Below the pieces are notes generated by a model. That model was not told the origin of the DNA, ran no database searches, and saw nothing but the letters and a program-made list of their open reading frames with translations. The position numbers and the translations under genes are program-made. A stretch of 57,138 nt of DNA from Polyangiales bacterium (GTDB taxonomy: Bacteria; Myxococcota_A; Polyangia; Polyangiales; Ga0077539), in contig JAXLYG010000023.1 of NCBI GenBank assembly GCA_046351535.1, forward strand, positions 128,001 to 185,138. The letters run 5' to 3'. Position 1 is the first letter of the stretch. Each line of letters begins with the position of its first letter. Shown in pieces: positions 508-38,537 of the stretch.

Positions 508-516
508 GCGATCACG

Positions 517-1766: not shown

Positions 1767-1784
1767 GGTGGTCCGTCCTCCTGA

Positions 1785-5418: not shown

Positions 5419-5662
5419 GGTCCTCGACCTCCGTCGCTGTTCCGCGTCTGCCAACGCAGAACGGTCGCGACAAAGCACGCACCATACCCGTCATCCCCCG
5501 ATCCCCCGCCCGTTCCCCAACGGGCGAAAAGTCAGGGACTATGACCTTGCGCAGTCCGCGCGCACGCACCGCACGCACGCACAAGGCGCGCGAACGCGCT
5601 GCAACGATCGCGGGACAGTCCGCCACGTGGCGTGTTAGCGCTCTCGTTCACGAGGTGAATGA

Positions 5663-6724: not shown

Positions 6725-6735
6725 CGACGCCCCGG

Positions 6736-8630: not shown

Positions 8631-9709
8631 GTTCCGAATCCCATCGTGCGGAGCCTCGCGAGGTTGGCCGTCAGGCTCGGCGACGCGCCCACGCGGCTCG
8701 CAGCCTCGAAGGCCTCGTAGGCGTCCTGGTAGCGTCGATCGAGGAGCGCCTCGACGCCCTTCGCGTAGAGCACTTCGAAGCTCAGCGAGCGCGTGGCCGA
8801 GGGCGGCGCCTGCTCGGGCGCGATGGCGCGCGGCGCGGGCGTGATGGGCCTGGACCCCGGCGTCTCTCGGAGCATCGGCCCGGGCTCGACGGTGCGCGGG
8901 GTGACGGGCTTCGGCGGCGCGGGCTCGGACTGAATCGGATACGGCATCGGACGCGCGGGCGTCGGGCGCGAGGGCGCCGGCCTCGACTGCGGGGGCCGCG
9001 AACCGACCACGCGACCGAGCTCCGCGAAGGCGAACTCCTCGCCCTCGCCCTGGACCTTGACCTCGTCTTGACGGCGGAGGCTGTCGAGGAGGAGCGCCTC
9101 GCAGCTCCCCGTGAGCGTGCGCGGGATCTCGACCCCCATGGGGTGGGCGCCGACGGTGACCCCGGTGGCCGCGACGAGCCGCGAGAAGGCCTCGACGCCC
9201 TGCCCGCCCTCGTCGCGCGCGTGCCACGCCTCGCCGCGGTGGATCACCACCTCGCCGAGCTGCTTGCCGTCGCGCGAGACGTCGAGCCGCACGGACCGTC
9301 GGCCCATGCTCGCGAGCTGGATGTAGTCCGCGAGGGTGAAGGGCGCGGCGACGTCGCGGAGCCCGAGCTGCTCGACGACGACCTCGCGGAGGTTGGCGAG
9401 CGCGACGGGCTTCTCGAGCACCACGATCCCGGGGCGCTGCGGCACCTTGAAGCGCCGCAGGTACGCCGACGCGATGACGATGGGGACGCGCGCGCCGATG
9501 CGGTCGAGCTCCGCGATGACCTCAAGGCCCGAGCGATCGGGGAGGTTCAGGTCGGTGATGAGGAGCTGCGGCACCGTCGCGCTGATGATGGCGTTGGCCT
9601 CGTCGACGGAGCCCGCCGCGAGCACCGACACACCGCTGAGCTTCGAGAGCCCGCGCACCATCGAGGCGCGCAGCATCGGCTCATCTTCGACGACGAGGAC
9701 GGTGGGCAT
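8627..9709 (-). CDS. response regulator: receiver domain + DUF4388 (PilZ-like) + Pro-rich linker + short helical C-terminus
   Basis: Receiver with LVVEDEP, ITDLNLPD and KPV. The middle region FTLADYIQLASMGRRSVRLDVSRDGKQLGEVVI matches DUF4388. A proline-rich segment follows. Confidence 0.75.
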   Translation of the reverse strand: MPTVLVVEDEPMLRASMVRGLSKLSGVSVLAAGSVDEANAIISATVPQLLITDLNLPDRSGLEVIAELDRIGARVPIVIASAYLRRFKVPQRPGIVVLEKPVALANLREVVVEQLGLRDVAAPFTLADYIQLASMGRRSVRLDVSRDGKQLGEVVIHRGEAWHARDEGGQGVEAFSRLVAATGVTVGAHPMGVEIPRTLTGSCEALLLDSLRRQDEVKVQGEGEEFAFAELGRVVGSRPPQSRPAPSRPTPARPMPYPIQSEPAPPKPVTPRTVEPGPMLRETPGSRPITPAPRAIAPEQAPPSATRSLSFEVLYAKGVEALLDRRYQDAYEAFEAASRVGASPSLTANLARLRTMGFGT

Positions 9710-21983: not shown

Positions 21984-23591
21984 TCAGGGGCGGCAGATGC
22001 GGCGGCGTACGCGCGACGCGAAGCCCGCCATTGTCTCGGCGTACGAGCTCGCGCAGATGGAGCCGAGGACGCCGTTGCCGTAGCGGTCGTCGAAGCGGCG
22101 GACGACCTGCGCGATGCGCCGCGAGGGCCACGCGAAGTACTGGTCGGTGGCGGAGCACGAGGTCGTCGGCGAGGAGCCCTGGCGGCGGCACGCGGGGACG
22201 ACGCGCGTGGAGCACATGGGGTCCATGTTGCGCTGGCGCATCGAGACGGGGCCCTCGGCGCTCATGGCGACGTAGCCGTCGGAGCCGTCGGCGCTGCGTC
22301 CGAGGAGGGCGTCCCAGTCCGTCGATCCGTCGGCGCGTCGGGGCTGCGCGAGGGGAACGCCCGCGATGGCGCCCACCACGACGAGGTCGGGGCGGCCGGG
22401 CTTGAGCGAGGTGAAGCCTCGGGCGGGGCGCGCGGGATCCATGTAGCGGTCGAGGGACCACGTCGGGTCTTGCGGCCCGCCCGGCGTGTACATGTAGAAC
22501 CGGAGGTTGAGGTCCGACGACGCCCAGCTCATCGAGAGGAAGTCGAAGACCGCGATCGCGTCGTTGCAGGGCTGCCCCGCCTCGGCGTAGCGGCAGTCGC
22601 GCGTGGAGCCGTCTTCTTCATCGGTGACGAAGAGCACGCCGAGCACGGCGTCGTTGCGCACGAAGCCCGCGTTGGGGTCGCGGTTGCCGACCTGCTCGCG
22701 GGGGTTGCGGATCACGAGCGCGCGGTACGCCGACTCGAGCTGCTGTTCGAGTCCGCAGCCTCCGATCGAGAGGTACGCGTTGCACACGAAGTCCTCGCGG
22801 AACGCCGCCGTGTCCGAGGTCGCCGACGTGTACGAGAGGAAGCTCGGGTACTGCGTGGGGTCCATCGTGCAGCGCGCGGGGCGACGTCCGTCGGGCGCCG
22901 TCGTCCACGGCTGGTGCGCGCGCAGCGCGAAGCCGTTGCGAATGGGGTTGAGCAGCCCGTCGTCGCCCGTGTCGCTGTTGGCGCACGAGGGCACGACGAC
23001 GCCGGGCGTCCCGAGGTCCGCCGACACGACGCCGATGTGAACGTCTCGCAGCGGCGTGCTCGTCGCGTCGGCGCGAATGAGCCCGTCGAGGAGCGAGCCG
23101 AACTGGGCGGCGACGGTGGCCTGGTTCTCGGCCATCGAGTTCGAGTTGTCGATCACGAACAGGAGGTCGAGCGCGCCCGTGGGCGAGCAGCTCGAACCTC
23201 CATCGCTCGGCGGGAGATCGGGCGTGGGCACGTCGGGCGCGGGCACGTCGGGCGCGGGCACGTCGGGCGCGGGCGTGTCGCCGATGGGCAGGTCGGGTGC
23301 GGGCACATCGAGCGGCGCGTCACTCATCACGCGATCGAAGAGGGGCGCATCCGACACGGGCGTGTCCATCGCGGGCGTATCCGTCACGGGCGTGTCCGTC
23401 ACGGGCGCATCCGTCACGGGCGTGTCCATCACGGGCGCGTCGGTGATGGGTGTGTCGGTGATGGGCGTGTCGGTGACGGGCGCGTCGGGGCCTGCGTCGG
23501 GGGTGGCGGTGACCGACGACGAACAGGCCGCGAGGCCGAGCAGCGCGAAGGCCGCGAGGCGCGAGGTGGAGCGCGTTGAGGAGGGCTGCAT
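21984..23591 (-). CDS. secreted lipoprotein with P-[VI]-TDTP tandem repeats and von Willebrand factor A-like domain
   Basis: Lipobox LLGLAACSSS. About 15 repeats of PxTDTP/PAPDV (DNA tandem repeats 23215..23520). LDLLFVIDNSNSMAENQ is a vWA MIDAS-like DxSxS motif. Cys-rich C-terminus. Confidence 0.65.
   Translation of the reverse strand: MQPSSTRSTSRLAAFALLGLAACSSSVTATPDAGPDAPVTDTPITDTPITDAPVMDTPVTDAPVTDTPVTDTPAMDTPVSDAPLFDRVMSDAPLDVPAPDLPIGDTPAPDVPAPDVPAPDVPTPDLPPSDGGSSCSPTGALDLLFVIDNSNSMAENQATVAAQFGSLLDGLIRADATSTPLRDVHIGVVSADLGTPGVVVPSCANSDTGDDGLLNPIRNGFALRAHQPWTTAPDGRRPARCTMDPTQYPSFLSYTSATSDTAAFREDFVCNAYLSIGGCGLEQQLESAYRALVIRNPREQVGNRDPNAGFVRNDAVLGVLFVTDEEDGSTRDCRYAEAGQPCNDAIAVFDFLSMSWASSDLNLRFYMYTPGGPQDPTWSLDRYMDPARPARGFTSLKPGRPDLVVVGAIAGVPLAQPRRADGSTDWDALLGRSADGSDGYVAMSAEGPVSMRQRNMDPMCSTRVVPACRRQGSSPTTSCSATDQYFAWPSRRIAQVVRRFDDRYGNGVLGSICASSYAETMAGFASRVRRRICRP
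23215..23520. repeat. coding tandem repeats (18-bp units) encoding P-x-TDTP/PAPDV linker
   Basis: Repeated cacgtcgggcgcgggc and cgtcacgggcgtgtcc units visible in the sequence. Confidence 0.7.
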
Positions 23592-23773
23592 GCGAGAGAT
23601 CTCCCAGTGGGGTCACGTTGTCGCAGAGCGCCCTCGCGGGTGTCCAGCAGCACGGAATCGGAACGCTCTCGCAGCCGCGGGACATGGGCGTCCGAGGGGG
23701 AAATCACCGTTGACTTTCGATGTATTCTGATGTAGGCGTCGCGCCCGTCGAGAGACAAGAATCGAGGACGACG

Positions 23774-24748
23774 ATGCGCGCGATGAAGTGGGTGCTGGTG
23801 CTGTCGATGGCCGCGGGCTGCGGGCACGAGGCGCTCGACGAAGAGGGCGCGACGGTCTCCGCGGTCGAGTCGCCGACGCTGACGTTCAGGGCCGACTGGA
23901 CCCGCAGCGTGACGGGCGAGCTCACGGCGGGGAGCTCGGTGCGCGTGGTGTATGACGCCGCGCGGCTGCCCCAGTGCCGCGGCGAGCAGAACGGGTATCA
24001 GCTCTGGTCGATCACGGGGTACTACCGGGTGAACGGCGGAGCGGCGCAGAGCTTCCCCGTGGCGCCCGCGTCGGTGCAGACGCCGACGCCCGCGGTGATC
24101 ACGCTGCCCGACGTGCAGGGCACGCTGGAGATGTGGTTCCAGAACAACAACCGCTGGGGCTGCAACGCGTACGACTCGAACTACGGGGCGAACTACACCT
24201 TCCGCGTGGGCCCCAACGCGCGCGCGCCGGGCTGGATCGGCGACGGCGCCGTGGTGATCTCTCGCGCGACCTGCTCGGGCGGCTTCGCGTGCGACAGCGA
24301 CCGCAGGCCCATCACCACCCCGTGGACCTACGAGACCTGGGCCCGTCAGCGCGCGGCCATCCGCACCGTCTCCTTCGACGTGTGGAAGCAGGGCGTGACC
24401 GACCGCGACAACCCCGACCTCTGGCGTCAGCTCGACGTGCAGATGCGCTACCGCTTCGGCACCTCGGGCGCCTTCGCGATGCGCTACGTGAGCTTCGAAC
24501 GCCGCGTCGGCAACAACGCGCGCTACACCGTCGACCTCCGCGGCGTCGACCCGCTGCCCGACTTCCCCGCGCTCACGGCGTGCCCGAGCTTCGCGCTCAC
24601 GGCCTCGCCCGACGGGACGCTCGTCTCCACGAGCTTCGAGTACTACTTCACCGTCAACGGCGTCGAGTACCGCCCCTCCCCCGGCGCGACCTTCAGGGCC
24701 ACGTTCACCAACTACAAGACCCCGCTCCTCGCCACCTGCCTGCGCTGA
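23774..24748 (+). CDS. hypothetical lipoprotein (324 aa)
   Basis: ATG at 23774 (MRAMKWVLVLSMAAGCGHE, a lipobox). Balanced composition with many W/Y/N. I recognise no domain. Confidence 0.5.
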   Translation: MRAMKWVLVLSMAAGCGHEALDEEGATVSAVESPTLTFRADWTRSVTGELTAGSSVRVVYDAARLPQCRGEQNGYQLWSITGYYRVNGGAAQSFPVAPASVQTPTPAVITLPDVQGTLEMWFQNNNRWGCNAYDSNYGANYTFRVGPNARAPGWIGDGAVVISRATCSGGFACDSDRRPITTPWTYETWARQRAAIRTVSFDVWKQGVTDRDNPDLWRQLDVQMRYRFGTSGAFAMRYVSFERRVGNNARYTVDLRGVDPLPDFPALTACPSFALTASPDGTLVSTSFEYYFTVNGVEYRPSPGATFRATFTNYKTPLLATCLR

Positions 24749-24934
24749 CCGGCGCCTGTCGACGACCGTCGACACCTGTCGCGCCGCGACCTCACCCCGT
24801 CGACCGCCGCGCCCCTGCGAACAAAGCGAATTCCGTCTGGCTGCGCGCGTGCATCGCCGCGCCCTGGCCGCGGTACGCTTGCCGCGTCCTCGCAGACGAG
24901 CGCTGCCCCCACCCCACACCCCGACGCCAGCCCC

Positions 24935-26983
24935 ATGCGCAACCCCTCTGCCCTCGCGCTGACCCTCGCCCTCTTCGGCTGCGGCACCAGGAGCCCGACC
25001 ACGCCCGACGCCGCCGCCGATCGACCGCAGGGCAGCGATGCACCCGCCGATGTCGTCGTCGACACACCCGTCGCGGATACGCCCATCGCGGATACGCCCG
25101 TCGCAGATATGCCCGTCACCGACGTGCCCATCGCAGATAGGCCCATCGCAGATGTGCCCGACGCTGCGGTGATTCCGGGGTCGTCGGTGACGTACACCGA
25201 GACGCGCGCCGCGTGTCGTGACCGCAATCCGCTGCGGAACGCGTACTTCGGCGACTTTCACGTGCACACGTCGCTCTCGTTCGACGCGTACGGGTGGGAG
25301 AACCGCAACGACCAGTCGGCCGCGTACCGCTTCGCGCGGGGAGAGACCATCCGGCTCGCGCCCCTCGGCCCCGACGGTCAGGGCACGCGCCCCGTACGGC
25401 TGGAGCGTCCGCTCGACTTCACCGCGGTCACCGATCACTCGGAGTTCCTCGGCGAGGTGAGCATCTGCAACGACCCCACGGCCACGGGCTACGACTCGAC
25501 GATCTGCCGCGGCTTCCGCTCGGGGGGAATGATCGGCTTCGCGGAGTTCGGCCTCCAGCTCGCGCGCACCGACCCCTCGCGATACCCCTTCTGCGGCGCG
25601 GCGGGCGCCAACTGCCTCGCCGCCGAGGGGCGCGTGTGGCGCAACGTCCAGAGCGCCGCCGAGGGCGCGTACGACCGCACCGCCGACTGCCGCTTCACGT
25701 CCTTCGTGGCCTACGAGTGGACGGGCACCACGGGCGGCGCGACGCTCCACCGCAACGTGATCTTTCGCAACGGCCAGGTGCCCGCGCGGCCCATCACGTA
25801 CATCGACGAGCCCACGGCGCCGGGCCTCTGGGCCACGCTCCGCCAGCGCTGCAACGCCTCGACGCCGGGCTGCGACGTGCTCGCGATCCCGCACAACTCG
25901 AACCTCTCGAACAACCGCGCCTTCGCCGTCGAGTACCCGTCGGGCTCCACGATGGAGCAGCAGCGCATGCTCGCTTCGCTGCGCGCCGACATGGAGCCCC
26001 TCGTCGAGATGGTGCAGCACAAGGGCGCGTCGGAGTGCAACCGGGCCTTCAGCGCCACCGACGAGGCCTGCGGCTTCGAGATGGCCAACGACGCCCCCAT
26101 GTGCACCTCGATGCCGCCGGGGATGGGCGGCTGCGTCGGCCGCGGAGACTACGTGCGATACGCGCTCCAGACGGGACTCAGCGAGGAGCGGCGCCTCGGC
26201 GTCAACCCCCACCGCCTGGGCTTCATCGCGTCGACCGACACGCACAACTCCACGCCTGGCAACACCGCGGAGCAGAGCTTTCCCGGTCACGTCGGGACGC
26301 AGGACGACGCGCCCGACGAGCGGCTCACCGACTCGATCAAGGTCTTCAGCCCCGGCGGCCTCGTGGGCGTGTGGGCCATCGAGAACTCCCGCGACGCGAT
26401 CTTCGACGCCCTCCGCCGCCGCGAGACCTTCGCCACCAGCGGCAACCGCATCCGCGTGCGCATGTTCGGGGGATGGACCTATCCCGCATCGATCTGTTCG
26501 GACCCCGAACTTGTTCGTCGCGGCTACACCGAAGGCGTCGCGCAGGGCGGGTCTCTCCCCGCTCGTTCGGGGACGAACAATCCCCGCTTCGTGGTGATGG
26601 CGACGGCCGACGCGACGCCGCTCCAGCGCGTCGAGATCATCAAGGTCTGGATCGACGCCGCGGGCGAGGCCCACGAGCGCGTGGTCACCGCCGCGGGCTC
26701 GGCCTCGAACGGCGCCTCGGTCGACACCAACACCTGCGCCACCACGCCGGGCGCCGGTCAGATGTCGCTCTGCGGCGTGTGGACCGACGACCAGTACAAC
26801 CCCGCCGAGCGCGCGGCCTACTACGCCCGCGTCCTCGAGAACCCCACGTGCCGGTGGAGCACCTGGGCGTGCAACGCGCTCGCGGCGTCGAGCCGCCCCG
26901 CGGCCTGCACCGACGGGTCGATTCCCCGGAGCATCCAGGAGCGCGCGTGGAGCTCGCCGATCTACTCCTCGCCGACGCCCTGA
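24935..26983 (+). CDS. DUF3604-family lipoprotein with N-terminal P-[VI]-ADTP repeats
   Basis: Lipobox LALFGCGT. Repeats DTPVADTPIADTPVADMPVTDVPIADRPIADVPD. YFGDFHVHTSLSFDAY is the DUF3604/PHP-like metal motif. Confidence 0.7.
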   Translation: MRNPSALALTLALFGCGTRSPTTPDAAADRPQGSDAPADVVVDTPVADTPIADTPVADMPVTDVPIADRPIADVPDAAVIPGSSVTYTETRAACRDRNPLRNAYFGDFHVHTSLSFDAYGWENRNDQSAAYRFARGETIRLAPLGPDGQGTRPVRLERPLDFTAVTDHSEFLGEVSICNDPTATGYDSTICRGFRSGGMIGFAEFGLQLARTDPSRYPFCGAAGANCLAAEGRVWRNVQSAAEGAYDRTADCRFTSFVAYEWTGTTGGATLHRNVIFRNGQVPARPITYIDEPTAPGLWATLRQRCNASTPGCDVLAIPHNSNLSNNRAFAVEYPSGSTMEQQRMLASLRADMEPLVEMVQHKGASECNRAFSATDEACGFEMANDAPMCTSMPPGMGGCVGRGDYVRYALQTGLSEERRLGVNPHRLGFIASTDTHNSTPGNTAEQSFPGHVGTQDDAPDERLTDSIKVFSPGGLVGVWAIENSRDAIFDALRRRETFATSGNRIRVRMFGGWTYPASICSDPELVRRGYTEGVAQGGSLPARSGTNNPRFVVMATADATPLQRVEIIKVWIDAAGEAHERVVTAAGSASNGASVDTNTCATTPGAGQMSLCGVWTDDQYNPAERAAYYARVLENPTCRWSTWACNALAASSRPAACTDGSIPRSIQERAWSSPIYSSPTP

Positions 26984-27811
26984 ATGACCCCGCGTACCCG
27001 CTGGTGGCGCGAGCCCGCGCTTCATTTCGTGCTCCTCGGCGCCGGGGTGTTCGCCCTCGACGCGTGGCGACGCCCGAGGGCCTCTCCGCGCGACGTCGAG
27101 GTCTCGGCCACCTACGTGACCGGCCTGCGCGAGGAGTACACGCGGCGCTACGGCCGCGCGCCGACGCGCGACGAGCTGCGCGCCGAGGTCGACCGCTTCG
27201 TCCGCGAGGAGGTGCTCTACCGCGAGGCCCTCGCGCTCGGCCTCGACCGCGGCGACCTCATCATCCGAAGGCGCCTCGTGCAGAAGATGGAGTTCTTTCT
27301 CGAAGACGTCGCGCCGCCGCGGAGCCCTTCAGACGAGACCCTCGGGGCCTATCTCGCAGCCCACGCCGACCGCTACGCGTCGCCGCCGAGGGTGAGCCTG
27401 CGCCACGTCTTCTTCGACCGCGGTCGACGCGGCGCGCGCCTCGACGCCGACGCCCGCGCGGCCCTCGCGGCGCTCCGTGGCGGGGCCGATGCAGCGACGC
27501 TCGGCGATCCCTTCGTGAGCGGGAGTTCCATCGTCGACGCGGAGGTGTCGCGCGTGGCGGGCGACTTCGGCGACGGCTTCGCGCGCGCCGTCGAGGGCCT
27601 CTCGACGGGGAGCTGGCAGGGGCCCGTGGCGTCGTCGTACGGGCTCCACCTGGTGCTCGTCACGGCGCGCGCTGCGGGGACGGCGCGGCGCCTCGACGAG
27701 GTGCGCGATCGGGTGATCTCAGACTGGCGCGTCGACGACCGCGAGCGGGCCAACCGCGAGGCGTACCGCCGCGTCGCCGAGACCTACCGCGTGCGCGTGG
27801 AGGGGCTGTGA
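26984..27811 (+). CDS. parvulin/SurA-like peptidyl-prolyl isomerase family protein (weak)
   Basis: ATG immediately after the stop of the DUF3604 gene (TGAATG). N-terminal TM/signal anchor. The C-terminal region GSWQGPVASSYGLHLVLV resembles a PpiC-type PPIase core. The assignment is tentative. Confidence 0.45.
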   Translation: MTPRTRWWREPALHFVLLGAGVFALDAWRRPRASPRDVEVSATYVTGLREEYTRRYGRAPTRDELRAEVDRFVREEVLYREALALGLDRGDLIIRRRLVQKMEFFLEDVAPPRSPSDETLGAYLAAHADRYASPPRVSLRHVFFDRGRRGARLDADARAALAALRGGADAATLGDPFVSGSSIVDAEVSRVAGDFGDGFARAVEGLSTGSWQGPVASSYGLHLVLVTARAAGTARRLDEVRDRVISDWRVDDRERANREAYRRVAETYRVRVEGL

Positions 27812-28830
27812 GGGCGCGCGTCGCGGCGCTTCTTGCGGCGCTGATCGCGGCGCCCACGGTGGCGCGCGCGCACGGGTTCTCGCCCGCCTACCTCGAACTT
27901 CGTGAGCGCGCCGACGGCAGGGTCGAGGTGCTCTGGAAGGTCCCCCTCGCGGGCGAGGGCGGCGTCGAGGGGAGAGAGCCCGTGAGCGTGCGCCTCCCGC
28001 GCGCGTGCCGCGAGGTCGCGCGCAGGGAGCCCGCGAGCGTTCCGGGGGCCGTGATCGATCGCTACGCGGTCGACTGCGGACCGGGCGGAATCGGCGGCGC
28101 GACGGTCACCCTCGTGAGCCCCGAGGGACGCGGCTGCGACGTGATGGTCTCGCTGCGCTTCGCCTCGGGGCAGCGATACACCGGGCTCCTGCGCGCGGGC
28201 GCGGCCTCGCTGGAGCTTCCGCGGTCGACGGGCGGGTCCGCGTGGCGCGTGGCGAGGAGCTACCTCGGCGAGGGCGTGAAGCACATCGCGACGGGCGCCG
28301 ATCACCTGCTCTTCGTGCTCGGGTTGCTGCTCCTCGTGCGAGGCGTCGGCGCGCTCATTCGAACGGTGACCGCGTTCACCGTGGGGCACAGCGTGACCCT
28401 CGCCCTCGCGACGCTCGGCGTCGTGCGGATGCCCTCGGCGCCCGTCGAGGCCGTCATCGCCCTCAGCATTCTTCTGCTGGCCGTCGAGCTCTCGCGCGAG
28501 GGTGACGGCGAGACCCTCACGCGGCGCGCTCCGTGGCTCGTGGCGGGCGGCTTCGGGCTGCTCCACGGCTTCGGCTTCGCGGGGGCGCTCATGGAGGCGG
28601 GGCTCCCGGCGCGGAACGTTCCCCTCGCGCTGCTGTTCTTCAACGTGGGCGTCGAGCTCGGGCAGGTGGTCTTCGTGGCCTTCGCGCTCGCCGCGCTCGC
28701 CGCCGTGAAGCGCCTCTCGCGCGATCGTTCGGACACCGTACGATCGGCGCTCACCTACGGCATCGGCGCGGCGTCGACCTACTGGTTTCTCATGCGATTC
28801 GCTGTCGTCGCAGGATGGTTCGAACCCTGA
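27808..28830 (+). CDS. HupE/UreJ-family membrane protein with N-terminal periplasmic domain
   Basis: GTG start overlaps the stop of the preceding gene (GTGA). Signal peptide and a 130-aa soluble domain. TM region with HLLFVLGLLLL, TVGHS and HGFGFAGAL, which are HupE/UreJ signatures. Confidence 0.65.
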   Translation: MRARVAALLAALIAAPTVARAHGFSPAYLELRERADGRVEVLWKVPLAGEGGVEGREPVSVRLPRACREVARREPASVPGAVIDRYAVDCGPGGIGGATVTLVSPEGRGCDVMVSLRFASGQRYTGLLRAGAASLELPRSTGGSAWRVARSYLGEGVKHIATGADHLLFVLGLLLLVRGVGALIRTVTAFTVGHSVTLALATLGVVRMPSAPVEAVIALSILLLAVELSREGDGETLTRRAPWLVAGGFGLLHGFGFAGALMEAGLPARNVPLALLFFNVGVELGQVVFVAFALAALAAVKRLSRDRSDTVRSALTYGIGAASTYWFLMRFAVVAGWFEP

Positions 28831-28852
28831 ACGATCGGCGCGATCCGCCGCC

Positions 28853-30688
28853 TCACGCAGCGTCGCGCGGGATCGTCACGGTGAAGGTGCTCCCCGCCCC
28901 CGGCGCGCTCTGCACGCGGAGCTCGCCGCCGTGTTGCAGCACGATCTCTCGCGCGATGCTCATGCCGAGGCCGTGCCTCCACCCGCCCGACTGCGTGGGG
29001 CGCTGCCGCGCGGTCTCGCTGTCGAGCATGCGCGCGAGCTCGTCGACGGCGACCCCTTCGCCCGTGTCGACGATCGAGATCGAGAGCGCGCGCTCGTCGC
29101 ACGCGGCGCCGAGCGTGACGCTGCCTCCCGCGGGCGTGTGACGGATCGCGTTCGAAACGATGTTCGCGAGCACGATGCTGATCTTCTCGACGTCGAGCTC
29201 GACGTCGGGCAGGGCGCCGGGCTCCGTGAGGTCGAGCGAGACGCCCTTGTCGCGCGCGATGGCGCGGTGCATCTCGATGGCCGAGAGGAGCAGGCGCCGC
29301 GGCTGCACGGCCGTGCGTCGGAGGTCGCCTGCCTCGGTCTCGATGCGCACGAGGTCGAGGAGCTCGTCGACGAGCGCGCGGAGGCGCTCGGTGTCGTCGC
29401 GCGCGGAGGTCACGATCTCGCGCTGCGTGTCGGTGAGCGCGCCCGCGGATGGTTCGAGGAGCAGGTGCGTCGCCATGCGCAGCGAGGTGAGCGGCGTCTT
29501 GAACTCGTGGCTCACGGTGGCGACCATGTCGCTCTTGAGCTCGTCGATGCGGCGAAGGCGCGTGACGTCTTGCGCCACCACCACGGCCCCGCGAAGCGTC
29601 GCGCCGTCGCCCCGCAGCGGCGCCGCGCGCACGAGGAAGTACCGATCGCCGCCGCGGTCGCGCCAGCGCATCGCCTCGGAGAGGTTGCGCGGCGTGACGG
29701 GGCGCCCCGCGGCGAGCACCTCGTCTCGGGCGCGCGCGAAGGCCTCGGGGAGCGAGGCGTCGCGTGAGGGGGCGCCCTCGGCGTCGGCGCGGAGTCCGAA
29801 GGTGCGCACGGCGGCCTCGTTGGCGAGGAGCACGGCGTCGCCCTCGCCGCACACGACCACGGGGTCGACGAGGCAGCGCACGGTGGCGTCGGCGAGGTCC
29901 TGCGCGGCGCGGAGCTCGCCGAGGGAGCTCGCGCGGTACGCCCGCAGCCGCGTGAGCATCTTCTGGAACGACTCGACGAGGGGCGCCAGCTCGCGCACCT
30001 CGGGGTCTTCGATCACCACGTCGAGCTCGCCGTCGCCGATGGCCTTCGCCGCGTCGGAGAGCGCGCGGATGGGCCGCACGATGCCCGAGGGGACGCGCCA
30101 CGCGACCCACAGCGCGAGCGCGAGCGCCGCGGCCACGAGCGCGAGGGTCGTGAGCGTGCTCCGGCGCGCGAGGGCGCGGGCGTCGCGGTCGGCGGCCTCC
30201 ATCGCGGCCTGGTTCATGTGTCGCACGGCGAGCACGGCCGCCTTCACGCCCGCGAAGCGCGGGAGGAGCTCGCGGAGGTAGGTCGCGCGGCGCCCCGGCT
30301 CGGGGCTCGCGAGCGCCTCGTCGACGGCCGTCACGTAGGCCCGATAGCGCGCTTCGAGCGCGTGCACGGCGGCGCCCTCGGCGGCCAGGGTGATGTTCGA
30401 AGCCTCGACGCGAAAGGCCGTCTGAAAGCGCGCGCGGTGCTGTTCGAGCATCGTCCGCGCGATGTCGTCGCGGCCCGTCGACGCGAGGAGCGCCGCGGAG
30501 TCGAGGCGCTCGAGGGCCTCGTTCATCGCGTCGCAGGCCACGACGGAGCGGTAGTTCTCGCGGAGGATCGTGTCGATGGCGCCGCCGAGGCGCGTGAGCG
30601 AGACCATCGCCGAGCCCGCCACGACGGCGAGCGCGACGGTGATCGCCGCGAGGGCGAAGGTGACGCGGGCGCGCAGCGAGCGTTGCAT
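28853..30688 (-). CDS. membrane sensor histidine kinase (2 TM, periplasmic loop, HAMP, HisKA, HATPase)
   Basis: TM1 near the N-terminus and TM2 TLTTLALVAAALALALWVAW, followed by HAMP. H-box SHEFKTPLTSL, N-box LANIVSNAIRH, G1 DTGEGV, G2 GLGMSIA. Confidence 0.8.
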   Translation of the reverse strand: MQRSLRARVTFALAAITVALAVVAGSAMVSLTRLGGAIDTILRENYRSVVACDAMNEALERLDSAALLASTGRDDIARTMLEQHRARFQTAFRVEASNITLAAEGAAVHALEARYRAYVTAVDEALASPEPGRRATYLRELLPRFAGVKAAVLAVRHMNQAAMEAADRDARALARRSTLTTLALVAAALALALWVAWRVPSGIVRPIRALSDAAKAIGDGELDVVIEDPEVRELAPLVESFQKMLTRLRAYRASSLGELRAAQDLADATVRCLVDPVVVCGEGDAVLLANEAAVRTFGLRADAEGAPSRDASLPEAFARARDEVLAAGRPVTPRNLSEAMRWRDRGGDRYFLVRAAPLRGDGATLRGAVVVAQDVTRLRRIDELKSDMVATVSHEFKTPLTSLRMATHLLLEPSAGALTDTQREIVTSARDDTERLRALVDELLDLVRIETEAGDLRRTAVQPRRLLLSAIEMHRAIARDKGVSLDLTEPGALPDVELDVEKISIVLANIVSNAIRHTPAGGSVTLGAACDERALSISIVDTGEGVAVDELARMLDSETARQRPTQSGGWRHGLGMSIAREIVLQHGGELRVQSAPGAGSTFTVTIPRDAA

Positions 30689-30698
30689 CGTCGTCGCC

Positions 30699-32039
30699 TC
30701 AGCGAAGGCCGTAGCGCTCGCGCTTGCGGTAGAGCGTCGAGGGGTCGATGCCGAGGGCCTTCGCCGCGGCGTCGAGGGAGGGCGTCCGCGCGAGCACGTC
30801 GGCGATGTGCCTGCGCTCGGCCGCTTCGAGGGAGTCGTCGTCGAGGGCCGCGGCCGCGGGCGCGCCGCCGCGAATCTCTTCGGGCAGGAGGTCGGGCGTG
30901 ATCGTGTCGCTCTCGCAGAGGATCACCGCGCGCTCGATGACGTTCGCGAGCTCGCGCAGGTTGCCGGGCCAGCGGTACGCGCAGAGGGCCGCGCGCGTGG
31001 CGGGGGCGAGCGTGAGGGCGCCGCGGCGGTGCTGCGCGCCGAGGTCGGCCACGGCGGCGGCGCAGAGGTCGGCGAGGTCTTCGCGGCGCTCGCGCAGCGG
31101 AGGGAGCGTGGCGGACACGACGTCGAGCCTGAAATACAGGTCTTCGCGGAAGTTCCCCGCGGCGACGGAGGCCTTGAGGTCGCGGTGCGTGGCGGCGATC
31201 ACGCGGGCGTCGAAGCGCCGCGGCTCGGAGTCTCCGACGCGCACGTACTCGTGCTCCTCGAGGAGCCGCAGGAGCTTGCCCTGCGCGTCGCGCGGGAGGT
31301 CGCCCACCTCGTCGAGGAAGAGGGTTCCGTTGCCCGCGGCCTCGACGTGTCCGACGCGTCCGCGGTCGGCGCCGGTGAAGGCCCCCTTCGCGTGTCCGAA
31401 GAGCTCGCTCTCGACGAGCGAGGCCGCGACGACGGCGCAGTTGAAGGTCACGAAGGGCCGGTCGCGGCGCGGCGAGAGCGCGTGGATGTGCCTCGCGAGG
31501 AAGCCCTTTCCCGTACCCGTCTCGCCGAGGAGGAGGATCGTCGCGTCGGTCATCGCGGCGCGCGTGGCGACGGCGAGGCACTGCTGCATGGCGGGGCTCC
31601 GCGTGTCGAAGCGCGCGCGCACGCCGCGGCCGCCCGCGCGCTTGAGCTCCGCCAGCTCGTGCTGGACGCGCGCCTGCGAGAGCACCTTCTCGACGGCGTG
31701 GAGCACCTGCGCCGGGGTGAAGGGCTTGGCGAGGTAGTCGACGGCGCCCGCGCGCATCGCGTCGACGGCGTTGTCGATCGTGGCGTACGCGGTCATCAAG
31801 ATCACGGCCGTCGCGGGCGCGTCGTGGGCGAGCGCGCGCACCACGGCGAGGCCGTCGAGGCCCGGCATGCGCAAATCGACGAGGGCCACGTCGGGCGGCG
31901 CGCGCCGCGCGGCGGCGAGGCCCGCCTCGCCGTCGGGCGCGAGGGTAACGTGGTAGCCCGCGCCTTCGAGGCACACGCGGAGCATCATGCGGATGTTGGC
32001 CTCGTCGTCGACGACGAGCACGCGGCCGCTGGCGCTCAT
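30699..32039 (-). CDS. sigma-54-dependent response regulator (NtrC family: receiver + AAA+ + Fis HTH)
   Basis: ATG at 32039 (MSASGRVLVVDDEANIRMML). Walker A GETGTGKG, the sigma-54 contact motif ESELFGHAKGAFTGA (GAFTGA), and a C-terminal HTH LGIDPSTLYRKRERYG. Confidence 0.85.
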   Translation of the reverse strand: MSASGRVLVVDDEANIRMMLRVCLEGAGYHVTLAPDGEAGLAAARRAPPDVALVDLRMPGLDGLAVVRALAHDAPATAVILMTAYATIDNAVDAMRAGAVDYLAKPFTPAQVLHAVEKVLSQARVQHELAELKRAGGRGVRARFDTRSPAMQQCLAVATRAAMTDATILLLGETGTGKGFLARHIHALSPRRDRPFVTFNCAVVAASLVESELFGHAKGAFTGADRGRVGHVEAAGNGTLFLDEVGDLPRDAQGKLLRLLEEHEYVRVGDSEPRRFDARVIAATHRDLKASVAAGNFREDLYFRLDVVSATLPPLRERREDLADLCAAAVADLGAQHRRGALTLAPATRAALCAYRWPGNLRELANVIERAVILCESDTITPDLLPEEIRGGAPAAAALDDDSLEAAERRHIADVLARTPSLDAAAKALGIDPSTLYRKRERYGLR

Positions 32040-32992
32040 CGCGCGGCCTCGCGGGCGTCGAGGAGGGCCGCGGCGTCGAGGGGCGGATCGGCGGTGAGCG
32101 GTCCGTCGCCAAGGCGCGCGAGGAGCGGGCCGATGCGCTCGGGGCGGGCGTCGGTGAGGCACAGCGCGAAGGCCTCGGAGCCCCGCGCGCGGAGGTGCAT
32201 CGCGGGCGGCGTGTTGAGGGAGAGCGAGGCGGTCATCACGGTGATCCTCGGTTCGTCGGAGGGCGCGTCGACGCGCCGATGGTGCTCCGAAACGTGCTGC
32301 GGCACATGGGAGAATCGCGCGTCGAGGGAATCGACGGGGCGCGCGCCCTCGTAGCGCGCGACGCGGGCGATGGCCTCGTGGAGGTCGATGCCGAGGTCGT
32401 CGTCGCGGCGCAGCGCGAGGGCGGCGCGGTAGCCGCGGAGGGCGTCGTCGTCGCGTCCTTCGAGCTCGGCGCGGAGGGCTTCGAGCGAGAGCACCTCGGC
32501 GTCGAGGGGGGCGCGGGCCCAGGCGCGCGCGAGGGGCGCCGCGGCGCGCGCGGGGGCGTTCTGCGAGAGGGCGACGGAGGCCGCGCGCACGGCCGCGGCG
32601 TGGTCGAGCGACGAGGTCTCACCGGGCGCGGCGCGGACGAGGGTGCGCGCCACGGCGTCGCGGAGCTCGGTGGGGGTGAAGGGCTTGGGGAGCGCCTCGT
32701 ACACGCCGAGTCTCAGGAGCTCGACGAGCACCGGCGCCGTGAGCGTGGTGCCCGTCACGATCACCGCGACGCGGGGGAACTGCGTTCGAAGCAGGCGCAC
32801 CTCCTGAAGCGGCGCGCCGTCGCCCGCGAGCTGATCGATCACCGCGAGTTCGAAGGCCTCGTCGTCGAGGAGCACGCGGGCGTGTCGAACGGAGGCGAAC
32901 TCCTCGACGGTGTACCCCGCGGCCGTGAGGGCCCGGTCGAGCATGGTCCGCCCCGAGGCGTCGGGCTCCACGACGAGCAGACGGCGGGTCAC
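32036..32992 (-). CDS. orphan response-regulator receiver protein with long Ala-rich C-terminal extension
   Basis: GTG at 32992 overlaps the stop of the KdpD-N gene (GTGA). Its own stop overlaps the ATG of the sigma-54 regulator (ATGA). Receiver core LLVVEPD...VIDQ...KPF. No recognisable output domain. Confidence 0.55.
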   Translation of the reverse strand: MTRRLLVVEPDASGRTMLDRALTAAGYTVEEFASVRHARVLLDDEAFELAVIDQLAGDGAPLQEVRLLRTQFPRVAVIVTGTTLTAPVLVELLRLGVYEALPKPFTPTELRDAVARTLVRAAPGETSSLDHAAAVRAASVALSQNAPARAAAPLARAWARAPLDAEVLSLEALRAELEGRDDDALRGYRAALALRRDDDLGIDLHEAIARVARYEGARPVDSLDARFSHVPQHVSEHHRRVDAPSDEPRITVMTASLSLNTPPAMHLRARGSEAFALCLTDARPERIGPLLARLGDGPLTADPPLDAAALLDAREAAR

Positions 32993-34155
32993 GGCGACTC
33001 CGTGGTGCCGGGGTCGTCTTCGCGGGTGCCGACCACGAGCACGTCGACCTCGGGCGCCGTGCGCATGAAGCGATCGAGCACCGAGCCCAGGAGCCGGTCG
33101 CGCCACGCGGATCTGCGCGAGCGACCGAAGACCGCGTGGGTGATCCCGCGCTCACGGGCGAAGCGCGCGAGGGCCTCGGCCACGTCGCCGCCTTCGAGGC
33201 GAACGACCTCGGCGCCGAGCTCCTTCGCGAGCCGGATGTTCTCGGTGAGCGAGCGGAGGGCGGCGGTCTCGATGCGCTCGGGGGTCTCGTCGCGGGTGCG
33301 CACGTACACGACGAACCAGCGGCTGTTGAGCCCGCCCGCGAGGCGCGCGCCCTGACGGAGAAGCCTCCGCGTGGCGCTCGGGGCCGACGACATCGAGACC
33401 ATGACGCGCTCGGCGTCGACGACGGAGAGCGGTCCGCGAGTCTCGTCGCGTCCGCGCGTGGCGTTGGCGCGCGCCCTCGCCCGCTGCTCGACGGCGTTGG
33501 CGACCTCGCGCAGCGCGAGCTGACGGAGCGCGGTGAGGTTGTCGGCGCGAAAGAAGCCCTGCAGCGCCCGCTCGACGCGCGCGGGGGGGTAGACCTTGCC
33601 CGCGCGGAGGCGCTCTTGAAGCTCGTCGGGCGCGAGGTCGACGACGACGATCTCGTCGGCGCGGTGAAGCACCCGGTCGGGCACGCGCTCTCGCACGTCG
33701 ACGCCGGTGGCCCTCAGCACGAGGTCGTGGAGGCTCTCGAGGTGCTGCACGTTGAGGGCGGAGAGCACGCTGATGCCCGCGGTGAGGAGGGTCTCGACGT
33801 CCTGGTGGCGCTTCTCGTTGGTGCTGCCGGGCACGTTGGTGTGCGCGAGCTCGTCGACGACGGCCACGTCGGGCTTGCGCGCGAGCACGGCGGCGAGGTC
33901 CATCTCTTCGAGGGGTACGGCGCGGTACTCGAGGGTGCGTCGGGGGATGATCTCGAGGCCCTCGGTCTCGTCGACGGTCTCCTTGCGGCCGTGCGTCTCG
34001 ACGAAGGCGCACACGACGTCGACGCCCTCGTCGCGGAGGCGCCGCGCGTCGCGCAGCATGGCGACGGTCTTTCCGACGCCCGCGGCCATGCCGAGAAAGA
34101 CCTTGAGCCTCCCCTGCCTGGCCGTGCGGAGCCCGTCGAGAAACGAGTCGCCCAT
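32989..34155 (-). CDS. kdpD: KdpD N-terminal sensor domain + universal stress protein domain (stand-alone; no kinase domain)
   Basis: N-terminal Kdp-type P-loop region RLKVFLGMAAGVGKTVAMLRDARRL...VVCAFVETHGRKETV. C-terminal USP domain (VMVSMSS...FVVYV...AHAVFG). Ends without TM, GAF or HisKA domains. Confidence 0.75.
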   Translation of the reverse strand: MGDSFLDGLRTARQGRLKVFLGMAAGVGKTVAMLRDARRLRDEGVDVVCAFVETHGRKETVDETEGLEIIPRRTLEYRAVPLEEMDLAAVLARKPDVAVVDELAHTNVPGSTNEKRHQDVETLLTAGISVLSALNVQHLESLHDLVLRATGVDVRERVPDRVLHRADEIVVVDLAPDELQERLRAGKVYPPARVERALQGFFRADNLTALRQLALREVANAVEQRARARANATRGRDETRGPLSVVDAERVMVSMSSAPSATRRLLRQGARLAGGLNSRWFVVYVRTRDETPERIETAALRSLTENIRLAKELGAEVVRLEGGDVAEALARFARERGITHAVFGRSRRSAWRDRLLGSVLDRFMRTAPEVDVLVVGTREDDPGTTESP

Positions 34156-34191
34156 CGCGTCACGCGCTCTCTCGCAGGGGTCTCACCAGGG

Positions 34192-34431
34192 TCACGGTCG
34201 CCTCGCGCGAAGCCATCGCATCACGACGACGAGGGTCACGGCCACGAGCATCGCGGCCAGCGTGTCGACGCTCCCGATGATGCTCCGCGCGCGCAGCACG
34301 GTGTAGAGGTGCGCGGCGGTCGACGCGCCTGCGAGCAGCCACACGACCACCTCGTAGCGGGCGAGCGTGCGGTCCTCCTCCTCTTCGGGCGACTTTGGCT
34401 CCATGGGCTTCACGGGGAGGGTCGGGAGCAC
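34192..34431 (-). CDS. small hypothetical membrane protein (79 aa)
   Basis: Two hydrophobic stretches (VVVWLLAGASTAAHLYTVL; LAAMLVAVTLVVVM). Lies between the porin and kdpD-N genes. Coding status is uncertain. Confidence 0.3.
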   Translation of the reverse strand: MLPTLPVKPMEPKSPEEEEDRTLARYEVVVWLLAGASTAAHLYTVLRARSIIGSVDTLAAMLVAVTLVVVMRWLRARRP

Positions 34432-34549
34432 ACCGGGTGCCGTCGGCCACGACCGCGCGATTCGGGGCCTGCGCGCGTCGCGGTCGTGCGAATTGCACGA
34501 AGTCCCACGGCGGTGACCGTGCGCCGCCGCACGGCGATCTGGGAGCGGG

Positions 34550-35785
34550 TCAGAACCACGCGGTCATTCCGAGGGTGAGGGTGTCTTGCGCGCGGGCGTT
34601 GGCGACGGGCGCGTGCGTCGTCGCGTCGTTCGAGACGGCGCCGCGAAAGTACGTGTCTCCGTCGGCCTGATCGTGGCGGTACTCGAGGCGCATCGAGACG
34701 TTGTCGTGGGGGCGCGCGTCGACGGTGAGGGTCTGCGAGCTCACCCAGGCCGAGGGCCAGAAGATCGACGACGCCGCGCCCGACGCGTTGCTCGGGACGC
34801 TCTCGTAGAAGGCGTCACCGCGCGCGGCGACGAAGAGCCACGGGCGCACCCTGACGCGCGCGTAGAGGGCCCCGGCGCCCCACCACGACACGCCGAAGGC
34901 GTTCGGTTCGAAGCCTCCGTTGGCGTGCGCGAGGAGCGACAGCCACGGCGTCGGATAGAGCGCCACGTAGGCGTCGAAGACGCTGCGCCACGGGGTCGAG
35001 CCCGCGCGCTCGGGGGCGCCCGCGGCGCGCTCGACGCCGCCGAAGTAGAGCGCGTGAACCGTGATCCGATCGGTCACGACGTAGTCGAGCGCGACGGAGA
35101 CGGACTTCTCGTCGTTGTTGTCGACGACGCTGTTCCAGCCGTTGTAGCCCGCGAGCGAGAGGGTCGTGCGGTCGCCGAGGGGATACGAGAGCCGCGCGCC
35201 CGTGTGATAGAACGGGAGGCCGAAGAAGAGGTTCGAGCGCGACCAGTTCCACTGGTCCTTCACGGCCATCCCCTCGGGGCCGATGGGCGAGAGAAAGATC
35301 CCCGCTTCGACGAGGAGCCCCGCGCCCACGGGGGCACGCCACGCGACGGTGGCCTGCTGGATGAACTTCCACACGTTGCTGTTGCTCGCGCCCGCGCCGC
35401 TCGCCCCGGCGAACGAGGGCTCGCCGAGGTAGTACGACTCGGGCGTGTGCCCGAACTGCAGCGCGAGGTGCGCCGTGACGGGTCCGAGCGTCCCCGTGGC
35501 GTCGAGCACCACGTTCGAAAGCGTCACCGCGTTGTGTCGATTGTCGAAGCCGCGATAGTTCGTGATGCCGTTCGAGGGCGCGTTGAAATTCCACTGGTAG
35601 AAGGTCTCGACGTAGCCCGAGAGGGTGATGTCGGGTCGCGCGGCGCTGCGAGACGTCCCCTCCGACACGTTCGCGACGGGCGCCAGGGTGGGTGTCGCCG
35701 CGTCCGTGCTCTGCGCCGACGCCGCGCGCGCGCAGAGCGATCCGATCGTCGCGAGCGCGCTCGCGAGCCTCCGTGAAAGTCTCAT
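34550..35785 (-). CDS. outer-membrane beta-barrel porin, kdp-associated
   Basis: Signal peptide (ALATIGSLCARAASAQ). Alternating beta-strand pattern rich in aromatic and Gly residues. Ends with ...TLGMTAWF, a C-terminal Phe typical of OMPs. Lies between kdpC and kdpD-N. Confidence 0.6.
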   Translation of the reverse strand: MRLSRRLASALATIGSLCARAASAQSTDAATPTLAPVANVSEGTSRSAARPDITLSGYVETFYQWNFNAPSNGITNYRGFDNRHNAVTLSNVVLDATGTLGPVTAHLALQFGHTPESYYLGEPSFAGASGAGASNSNVWKFIQQATVAWRAPVGAGLLVEAGIFLSPIGPEGMAVKDQWNWSRSNLFFGLPFYHTGARLSYPLGDRTTLSLAGYNGWNSVVDNNDEKSVSVALDYVVTDRITVHALYFGGVERAAGAPERAGSTPWRSVFDAYVALYPTPWLSLLAHANGGFEPNAFGVSWWGAGALYARVRVRPWLFVAARGDAFYESVPSNASGAASSIFWPSAWVSSQTLTVDARPHDNVSMRLEYRHDQADGDTYFRGAVSNDATTHAPVANARAQDTLTLGMTAWF

Positions 35786-35813
35786 CGGTGATCTCCGTGT
35801 TCGCGGTCGGCGG

Positions 35814-36398
35814 TCAGCGCCCCGCGCGGGCGTCGAGGTCGAGGTTGAGCGCGAGCACGTTCACGCGGGCCTCGCCGAAGAGCCCGAGCGTGCGACCTTC
35901 GGTGTGCTTCGCGACGAGCGCGCGCAGCGAGGCCTCGGACATCGCGCGGGCCCTCGCCACGCGAGGGACCTGCACCTCGGCCGCCGCGGGGGAGATGTGC
36001 GGATCGAGTCCGCTCGCGCTCTTCGTCACGAGGTCGACGGGGATCGTGCCCGTGACGCCCGTGGCGCGGAGCGCGGCGACGCGAGCCGAGACCTCGTCGG
36101 TGAGCGAGGGGTTGAGCGGCCCGTAGTTGCTGCCCGACGAGTACGTGACGCCCGTCGCGCCGTCGACCGTCGCGGCCGAGGGCCTCCCCCAGAAATACTC
36201 GGGGTGCGCCGACGGATCCGCGAAGGTCTGACCGATCAGCATCGAGCCGCGCACGCGGCCGTCGCGCGCGATCAGGCTCCCGTTGGCCTCGCGCGGAAAC
36301 GCGGCCTGCGCCACGCCCGTGACGAATGCGGGATACGCCGCGCAGCAGAGCGCGAGGAGGAACGCGGTCACCACCAGACAGGGACGAATGAGCTTCAT
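35814..36398 (-). CDS. kdpC: potassium-transporting ATPase subunit C
   Basis: 194 aa. N-terminal TM helix. Conserved KdpC blocks (SGSNYGPLNPSL, SASGLDPHISPAAA). Directly downstream of kdpB. Confidence 0.85.
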   Translation of the reverse strand: MKLIRPCLVVTAFLLALCCAAYPAFVTGVAQAAFPREANGSLIARDGRVRGSMLIGQTFADPSAHPEYFWGRPSAATVDGATGVTYSSGSNYGPLNPSLTDEVSARVAALRATGVTGTIPVDLVTKSASGLDPHISPAAAEVQVPRVARARAMSEASLRALVAKHTEGRTLGLFGEARVNVLALNLDLDARAGR

Positions 36399-36413
36399 CG
36401 AAACACCAACCTC

Positions 36414-38528: not shown

Positions 38529-38537
38529 GGGTGGTGC

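Follow-up and report, generated by a model that had tools for sequence, protein, structure and literature searches.

How exported metalloenzymes are supplied with metal is an open question, for which TerC in Bacillus is the only well-studied case: the TerC-family proteins MeeF and MeeY of Bacillus subtilis metalate exported enzymes (PMC10550928). Metal capture outside the cytoplasm has also been described for proteins of the HupE_UreJ_2 family (PF13795) with so-called anglerase domains, Ang-1 and Ang-2, in which a histidine after the signal peptide (His1) is 100% conserved (PMC12537917, Nat Commun 2025). The Ang-1 domain of a Rhodobacteraceae protein binds Cu2+ with a dissociation constant of 74 nM and Ni2+ with one of 220 nM, by means of a mono-histidine brace (structure 9GCE, RbAng-1a), and is not stabilised, but slightly destabilised, by Co2+. 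In the model of the authors, metal ions are fished by the domain and passed into the permease, so that capture is followed by uptake. Their census of gene neighbourhoods contains Rotamase_2 three times and DUF3604 never (PMC12537917). Here we describe a three-gene cassette for a DUF3604 lipoprotein, a parvulin-like protein and a HupE_UreJ_2 permease, found in a window of 57,138 nucleotides (nt) from contig JAXLYG010000023.1 of a Polyangiales bacterium; by window we mean the whole stretch of DNA that was analysed, which has a G+C content of 72%. The whole analysis is computational. The core of the cassette is an invariant pair of parvulin and permease genes, and DUF3604 is its frequent, but not obligatory, third member. 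The features of the cassette, with proteins in amino acids (aa), are as follows.

24935-26983, plus strand: DUF3604 gene, for a 682-aa lipoprotein with a predicted PHP-fold catalytic core and a C-terminal beta-sandwich (open reading frame (ORF) list, hidden Markov model (HMM))
24935-24982, plus strand: Sec/lipoprotein signal peptide MRNPSALALTLALFGC with lipobox LFGC, Cys16 codon at 24980-24982 (read from the sequence)
25067-25164, plus strand: 15-nt tandem repeat encoding a D-x-P-[VI]-[AT] linker from the lipid anchor to the catalytic domain (Tandem Repeats Finder: period 15, 6.2 copies)
25259-25267, plus strand: H109-V-H111, an HxH motif after the first barrel strand, E102-107 (invariant in 78 sequences; model)
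26237-26245, plus strand: D435-T-H437, a DxH motif, as is typical for the last of the PHP metal-binding motifs, after strand E429-432 (both residues invariant; model)
26981-26986, plus strand: TGAATG junction, where the DUF3604 stop TGA (26981-26983) abuts the parvulin ATG (26984-26986) (read from the sequence)
26984-27811, plus strand: parvulin-like gene, 275 aa, with a membrane anchor at the N-terminus, then a conserved helical stretch and a Rotamase_2 domain (ORF list, HMM)
27808-27811, plus strand: GTGA junction, where the permease GTG (27808-27810) overlaps the parvulin TGA (27809-27811) (read from the sequence)
27808-28830, plus strand: HupE_UreJ_2 gene, 340 aa, GTG start, for a predicted signal peptide, periplasmic beta-sandwich and six membrane helices
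27808-27873, plus strand: signal peptide MRARVAALLAALIAAPTVARA, then His22, the first predicted mature residue (codon 27871-27873)
27871-28245, plus strand: predicted periplasmic beta-sandwich metal-capture ('anglerase-like') domain with invariant Cys67 and Cys90 (AlphaFold2 (AF2) model, Foldseek)
28282-28305, plus strand: H159-x5-D165-H166, the HupE-type metal motif in the first membrane helix (invariant in 41 sequences)

An earlier annotation of the window, made from its letters alone and referred to here as the sequence-only reading, had named the three families and the two junctions. Direct reading confirmed the ORFs and junctions, and in HMM searches all three proteins passed the curated Pfam cut-offs. 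The lipoprotein matched DUF3604 (PF12228) at profile positions 2-591 of 591 (E=3.5e-163, 544.6 bits versus a cut-off of 20.4). The parvulin-like protein matched Rotamase_2 (PF13145) with residues 115-242, covering domain positions 1-121 of 121 (E=2.3e-13, 51.4 bits versus 27), and residues 152-302 of the permease matched HupE_UreJ_2 (E=7.5e-46, 156.1 bits versus 24.5). The label HupE/UreJ given to the permease therefore holds in that the protein is of HupE type, but not in the sense of the canonical family: the canonical model (PF04955) gave no match at E<=0.01, which places the permease in the sister family PF13795. Some of its homologues match PF04955 too, weakly.

The junction between the parvulin and permease genes is of a recurrent kind. 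Among 84 related loci, a 4-nt NTGA overlap occurs in 53 and a 1-nt overlap in 13, so that the GTGA of the window is a family trait. The overlap is expected to couple translation of the two genes. In relatives, the distance between DUF3604 and the parvulin gene ranges from -4 to +229 nt. The operon-like coupling proposed in the sequence-only reading is thus borne out, as more than a chance arrangement, by conserved stop/start overlaps and by a linkage of the three genes that extends across phyla. A contig from an activated-sludge metagenome (L167), with a permease 99% identical to that of the window, has the same order of genes: DUF6209, DUF3604, Rotamase_2, HupE_UreJ_2, kinase and regulator.

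The linkage was followed from both ends. In the forward test, 80 DUF3604 loci were taken, each from a different GTDB species representative; to call genes in the fetched loci, six-frame ORFs were matched to HMMs derived from 350 homologues, and a filter on G+C by codon position was applied. A parvulin-like gene adjoins DUF3604 in 21 of the 80 loci. Fourteen of these 21 also have an adjacent HupE_UreJ_2 gene on the same strand, in the order PPI-HupE-DUF or DUF-PPI-HupE, where PPI (for peptidylprolyl isomerase) stands for the parvulin-like gene. In one further locus the parvulin-permease pair is divergently transcribed (L024), in another the HupE_UreJ_2 gene lies on the opposite strand (L021), and five have parvulin and DUF3604 genes without a permease (L003, L010, L040, L048, L051). 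Neither partner was found at 41 DUF3604 loci with at least 2.5 kilobases (kb) of sequence on both sides. As a background, the closest ORF beyond either end of the block was recorded, and among these 103 ORFs no Pfam family occurred more than four times. Among the carriers are Myxococcota, such as the cultured Enhygromyxa salina DSM 15201 and Nannocystis sp. RBIL2, as well as Candidatus Binatia, Vicinamibacterales and metagenome-assembled genomes (MAGs) labelled Spirochaetales. Identity is below 38% between the two clades to which the linked DUF3604 genes belong, and one MAG has both a linked and an unlinked copy (L030 and L058).

The reverse test used 80 metagenome loci seeded on HupE_UreJ_2, a sample ascertained via the permease, in which many contigs are too short to inform on the neighbourhood. 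A parvulin gene lies directly upstream of the permease gene in 45 of the 47 loci with enough upstream sequence. DUF3604 is present on the same strand within 2 kb of HupE_UreJ_2 in 32 of the 80 loci; when only the 15 loci with 2.5 kb or more on either side are considered, this is so in 10. The search for DUF3604-HupE linkage in relatives that the sequence-only reading had called for thus found it conserved, and in two lineages the two genes are fused in frame. One HupE_UreJ_2::DUF3604 fusion protein has 936 aa and was found on three contigs from separate assemblies (P0015), the other has 942 aa (P0107). Both fusion genes are preceded by a parvulin gene with an overlapping start, and a lipobox is retained at the junction (IGGC and LAGC). 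The topology of the fusions keeps the DUF3604 part periplasmic. Since the family assignments hold and the linkage is conserved, neither of the grounds on which the sequence-only reading was to be given up, assignments that fail or a linkage absent from all relatives, applies.

Three further apparent fusions were not counted: P0506 lacks a signal peptide or His1 at the junction, P0508 is frameshifted junk, and P0400 would have an impossible topology. One MAG contig (L084) carries two systems, DUF3604 followed by parvulin (1-2525, minus strand) and parvulin followed by a HupE_UreJ_2::DUF3604 fusion (5225-8811, plus strand). No fourth conserved gene was found; the extra genes at L112, L025 and L021 are of no consistent family. 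In one Myxococcota genome, a DUF4197 gene, not DUF3604, follows the parvulin-permease pair (L082, 7033-7812).

The DUF3604 protein begins with MRNPSALALTLALFG, followed by Cys16. Conservation of this cysteine in 78 homologues is 90% or higher, which, together with a signal peptide that ends in the lipobox LFGC, supports the earlier call of a bacterial lipoprotein. The signal peptide contains no twin-arginine motif. A disordered linker of about 70 residues, partly encoded by the tandem repeat, separates the anchor from the catalytic domain; in the AF2 model the predicted local distance difference test (pLDDT) score is below 50 at residues 15-70. The PHP-like metal motif FGDFHVHTSLSFDAY that was noticed in the sequence-only reading is present, and its H109 (codon 25259-25261) and H111 (codon 25265-25267) are invariant in the 78 sequences. 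Also invariant are D167-H168, E261, H272, H320, H362 and D435/H437, as are 15 cysteines.

The AF2 model has the distorted (beta/alpha)7 barrel of the PHP superfamily. Most of the invariant candidate ligands sit at or just past its strands, and the invariant residues follow the motif order of the superfamily, HxH, H, E, H, H, DxH. For individual PHP proteins compared with DUF3604, the figures given are 14.8 for TM0559 (2anu), 12.5 for PsfC and EndoQ, 8.3 for RNase AM, about 8 for the PHP domains of Pol III alpha and about 7 for YcdX and histidinol phosphatases. PDB sequences gave no match to DUF3604, with either a single sequence or a profile. The PHP-fold barrel and the invariant ligand motifs of a PHP-type di- or trinuclear metal site argue that DUF3604 is most likely a metal-dependent hydrolase, active outside the cytoplasm and probably a phosphoesterase. 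In view of the Sec-type lipoprotein signal, the missing twin-arginine motif and the 15 invariant cysteines, the protein must fold and acquire its metal outside the cytoplasm. For the PHP enzymes characterised so far, the known metals are Zn, Mn or Fe and the known location is the cytoplasm.

DUF3604 is a large family: at E<=1e-10, its matches number more than 7,200 clusters of 90% identity. In the literature searched it appears only as an annotation label, for the 622-aa protein CT_425 / CTL0684 of Chlamydia trachomatis, the gene of which has a transposon insertion at the last codon (PMC11925237). With this member, the family reaches an obligate intracellular pathogen. Tandem DUF3604 genes are found at L037, L054, L126 and L140, and L045 and L054 lie on one contig; multiple copies per genome suggest an expansion of enzyme paralogues. 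Some DUF3604 proteins are longer than usual, with about 880 aa (P0020, P0042, P0076, P0079, P0084, P0095, P0120) or about 890 aa (L112, 2492-5173; L122, 5878-8541). Some of them have an N-terminal extension of about 280 aa (several labelled Binatia), others a C-terminal one of about 250 aa, and the extensions of P0020, P0120, L112 and L122 had no Pfam match.

For the parvulin-like protein, an alignment of 40 homologues shows a hydrophobic anchor at the N-terminus and two regions with invariant residues. The helical segment has the signature LYREAxxxGLDxxDxIVRRRLxQKM, with E76, R80, D91, R95, R97, Q100 and K101 invariant, and in the parvulin domain G174, F177, W211, S217, G220 and H222 are invariant. 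The protein does not reach the equivalog cut-off of NCBIfam NF000809 for PrsA-type peptidylprolyl isomerases (19.8 versus 303 bits). We read it as a membrane-anchored chaperone of SurA/PpiD type. The second parvulin gene copy on the contig with two systems (L084) has a faint match to SurA_N_3.

The permease is predicted to be cleaved after ARA, so that the mature protein would start with H22. All of 41 homologues have this histidine, and among the sequences listed the residue before it is always A, G or S. In the AF2 model (pLDDT 85.8), beta-sandwich strands at residues 27-136 are followed by six helices, an arrangement that would place both termini in the periplasm. The H-x5-D-H motif reads H159-IATGA-D165-H166, and further polar residues invariant among the 41 homologues are H194, E214, E227, H253, N279, E283 and Q286. 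The top PDB match of the model in Foldseek is the zinc-binding ZrgA of Vibrio cholerae (8ezw, E=2e-3, probability 1.0, template modelling score 0.56, target).

The N-terminal domain (N-domain) of the permease defines a family of 408 cluster representatives at 50% identity, most of which carry it N-terminally in a protein of about 330 aa. Its profile matched no PDB sequence at E<=10, and the only Pfam family at E<=10 was FixH (E=0.23). A match of the domain to a 3,054-aa Calx-beta protein (E=4.9e-23) was dismissed, as it amounts to 26% identity over 68 residues, multiplied by identical repeats. Three proteins of 709-727 aa (P0380, P0381, P0401) have the same N-domain followed by two tandem HupE-type membrane domains (PF13795 and/or PF04955), which suggests an internal duplication of the permease in some lineages.

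The reading that we prefer, with a confidence that stays just short of even, is that parvulin and permease are an accessory module that folds and metal-loads the periplasmic DUF3604 enzyme. The three genes would then specify a single conserved extracytoplasmic module. The parvulin chaperone would hold the large (about 600 residues), disulfide-rich DUF3604 protein during folding, and the permease with its His1 domain would capture or gate a metal ion at the surface of the membrane and thereby ensure correct loading of the PHP site. While the gene architecture, the assignments of family and fold, the linkage and the fusions are shown directly, we infer the chemistry of the hydrolase, its metal, which way transport runs and the relation between accessory proteins and client. 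This reading is favoured by the position of the chaperone as the hub of the cassette, since its gene accompanies that of the permease in 45 of 47 loci and DUF3604 without a permease in five. It is also favoured by the asymmetry of the linkage, as most pairs have DUF3604 nearby and most DUF3604 genes are without the pair, and by the precedent of TerC for the metalation of exported enzymes (PMC10550928).

Several observations weigh against it. About two thirds of the informative DUF3604 loci have no pair nearby, and five of the 15 pairs with long flanks have no DUF3604 and mutually unrelated neighbours. Because the linkage is thus partial in both directions, the dependence between pair and DUF3604 is either not obligatory or can act in trans. 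On the side of the chaperone, the second parvulin histidine (H222) is invariant, but several homologues have Q in place of the first (that of RHVF). On the side of the enzyme, the PHP models of Pfam do not match DUF3604 even at E<=10, and the presumed equivalence of its ligands to those of YcdX is drawn from fold and motif order, not from a residue-level superposition. A permanent fusion of permease and enzyme would fit a hand-over of substrate or product at least as well as a one-off maturation. Finally, characterised HupE proteins import Ni into the cytoplasm (Brito et al. 2010, as cited in PMC4965479), and such import would make no direct delivery to a periplasmic client.

The fusions lead to the alternative that survives best, which we nevertheless consider unlikely: that the cassette serves acquisition of a metal or another cation. 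DUF3604 would hydrolyse a compound in the periplasm or outside the cell (a metal-chelating phosphoester, for instance), the His1 domain would catch the released ion, the permease would import it, and the chaperone would serve the permease. In-frame permease::enzyme fusions are what one would expect if substrate or product is handed over, the parvulin-permease pair is the invariant core and is also found without DUF3604, the published anglerase model is one of capture and uptake (PMC12537917), and canonical HupE imports Ni. However, the five loci with parvulin and DUF3604 genes but no permease tie the chaperone to the enzyme and not to transport. Moreover, the neighbourhood has no consistent metal-responsive regulator, riboswitch or TonB receptor, and DUF3604 paralogues, some in tandem arrays, far outnumber the pairs, which suits a family of catabolic enzymes better than an accessory of uptake.

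Somewhat less probable still is co-regulation without interaction, in which the genes would respond to a shared cue, such as limitation of metal or phosphate, the permease would tune the metal content of the cytoplasm, and DUF3604 would carry out unrelated chemistry. The partial linkage in both directions, the variable spacing between DUF3604 and parvulin genes and the flips in gene order between DUF-PPI-HupE and PPI-HupE-DUF are all compatible with this idea. It does not sit well with the independent in-frame fusions, or with a three-way association that recurs in several phyla and in clades with less than 38% identity, and shared regulation alone would hardly account for the parvulin-DUF3604 pairs that have no permease.

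The proposal of the sequence-only reading that DUF3604 is a Ni- or Co-dependent hydrolase with HupE as its dedicated Ni/Co importer is very improbable: in its favour are the conserved HX5DH motif, the weak PF04955 matches of some homologues and the binding of Ni2+ by the published anglerase domain, but the window permease belongs to PF13795 and not to PF04955, the published domain, the only one from PF13795 proteins with biochemistry behind it, binds Cu2+ more tightly and is slightly destabilised by Co2+ (PMC12537917), no urease, hydrogenase or B12 genes are nearby and no NiCo or other riboswitch is present in the window (Rfam), and an importer that delivers metal to the cytoplasm would not directly feed, and so could not load, an enzyme exported by Sec.

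With regard to the metal, Zn, Mn, Fe, Cu and Ni are all possible for the cassette, and we know of no PHP-fold enzyme with Ni or Co as its native metal. Regulatory signals do not narrow the choice. No Rfam family was found in the whole window, neither a sigma-70-like promoter nor a convincing terminator in 23500-29300, and no sigma54 promoter upstream of the cassette (8 matches in the window versus 12 expected). Metal and regulator can therefore not be deduced from regulatory clues.

Downstream, the three-gene unit ends at 28830 and converges on two-component genes on the opposite strand.

28853-30688, minus strand: HAMP/PAS histidine kinase
30699-32162, minus strand: sigma54-dependent response regulator

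A further receiver-domain protein is encoded on the minus strand in the same converging group (28853-33106). Likely potassium-uptake genes follow at 32989-40304 (minus strand), with a P-type ATPase (36414-38528) between ORFs of 588 and 194 aa, a set that is Kdp-like by size and order. The translation of an ORF at 32989-34155 (minus strand), judged by eye, resembles the N-terminal sensor part of KdpD, and the region 34550-35785 (minus strand) encodes a BBP2 beta-barrel porin. A three-domain multicopper oxidase (43971-45503, plus strand) and a protein with a MopE-type copper-binding motif (49859-51547, plus strand) lie 15-20 kb downstream of the cassette; no evidence of a link to it was found.

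Upstream, a DUF6209 gene (23720-24748, plus strand, E=6.2e-38) precedes DUF3604 by 187 nt, and its counterpart on the sludge contig L167 is at 171-1145. DUF6209 lies near DUF3604 only in the window and on this near-identical contig, and is not a recurrent neighbour elsewhere. The divergent gene at 21984-23591 (minus strand) encodes a lipoprotein-like protein of 535 aa. Its Pro/Thr/Asp linker, encoded by 15-nt repeats (TDTPI, TDAPV) at 23218-23486, resembles the DUF3604 linker, and the protein has a weak partial match to a MIDAS-family adhesin model (23.3 bits versus a cut-off of 700). An ORF of 1198 aa that runs antisense over the whole DUF3604 gene (23429-27025, minus strand) is rich in Arg, Gly and Ala and looks like an artefact of high-G+C antisense sequence.

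The cassette gives the large, uncharacterised DUF3604 family a concrete and testable context, that of an exported PHP-fold metalloenzyme with two dedicated partners. A chaperone and a permease that are genetically tied, and sometimes fused, to their presumed client would also be a tractable second system for the metalation of exported enzymes. Should DUF3604 be a phosphoesterase, it may matter for the turnover of organic phosphorus in soil, sludge and marine sediments; the class would be abundant in Myxococcota, Binatia, Acidobacteriota and Halieaceae of soil, sludge and marine origin. In its widest form, the reading that we prefer would make parvulin and His1-domain permease an inner-membrane station for the metalation and folding of exported PHP-fold lipoproteins, the Gram-negative counterpart of TerC with a third class of anglerase, and DUF3604 a new class of extracytoplasmic phosphoesterases. 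We regard this full combination as doubtful, though less so than any of the alternatives above.

The families involved are each known, and the anglerase-HupE/UreJ-2 architecture was published in 2025 (PMC12537917). The strict partnership with parvulin, the link to DUF3604, the assignment of DUF3604 to the PHP fold and the distinct class of N-domain were not found in the literature searched. To TerC, the likeness is a functional analogy only: in both cases a membrane metal transporter, at work during or after secretion, would load exported metalloenzymes, but the protein families are unrelated, and for the window permease neither transport in the export direction nor association with the Sec translocon has support.

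DUF3604 differs from the PHP-superfamily phosphoesterases with which it can be compared (3e38/BVU_3505, TM0559 2anu, YcdX, histidinol phosphatase, RNase AM, EndoQ and the PHP domain of Pol III alpha) in being about twice their size, with large insertions, in its 15 invariant cysteines and export as a lipoprotein, and in the lack of a sequence-level match to PHP models. One of the superfamily members in the comparison, PsfC, is non-hydrolytic. The parvulin-like protein has an N-terminal membrane anchor, a helical chaperone-like segment and a parvulin domain in common with PpiD, SurA and PrsA. Unlike PpiD and SurA, it is much shorter, has an invariant helical motif of its own and is coupled to a metal permease.

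The canonical HupE/UreJ proteins (PF04955), which are Ni (and Co) permeases such as HupE of Rhizobium leguminosarum (Brito et al. 2010), share with the window permease a related membrane domain, the H-x5-D-H motif and a histidine after the signal peptide. Mutagenesis of HupE has assigned the HX5DH motif a role in Ni transport. The window permease differs in its extra periplasmic domain of about 125 aa, in having no PF04955 match and in not being encoded beside hydrogenase or urease genes.

The closest relatives are the anglerase permeases. Like them, the window permease has a signal peptide, an invariant mature His1, a non-cytoplasmic beta-sandwich and a PF13795 membrane domain, and BLASTP aligns 108 residues of its membrane part to RbAng-1a-HupE/UreJ-2 at 44% identity. 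ZrgA is the nearest solved fold both for the published Ang-1 domain (PMC12537917) and for the window permease model. In contrast to Ang-1, the N-domain of the window permease has an invariant pair of cysteines and about 115-125 instead of about 175 residues, and the two domains are not aligned by BLASTP. The gene context differs as well, as the window family has an upstream parvulin gene in nearly all informative loci. From a direct comparison with Ang-1 only, the N-domain looks like a third anglerase-like class with a gene context of its own. The anglerase concept would thereby be extended by a new class of N-domain, by an obligatory parvulin partner that went undetected in the published neighbourhood analysis, and by a candidate client enzyme.

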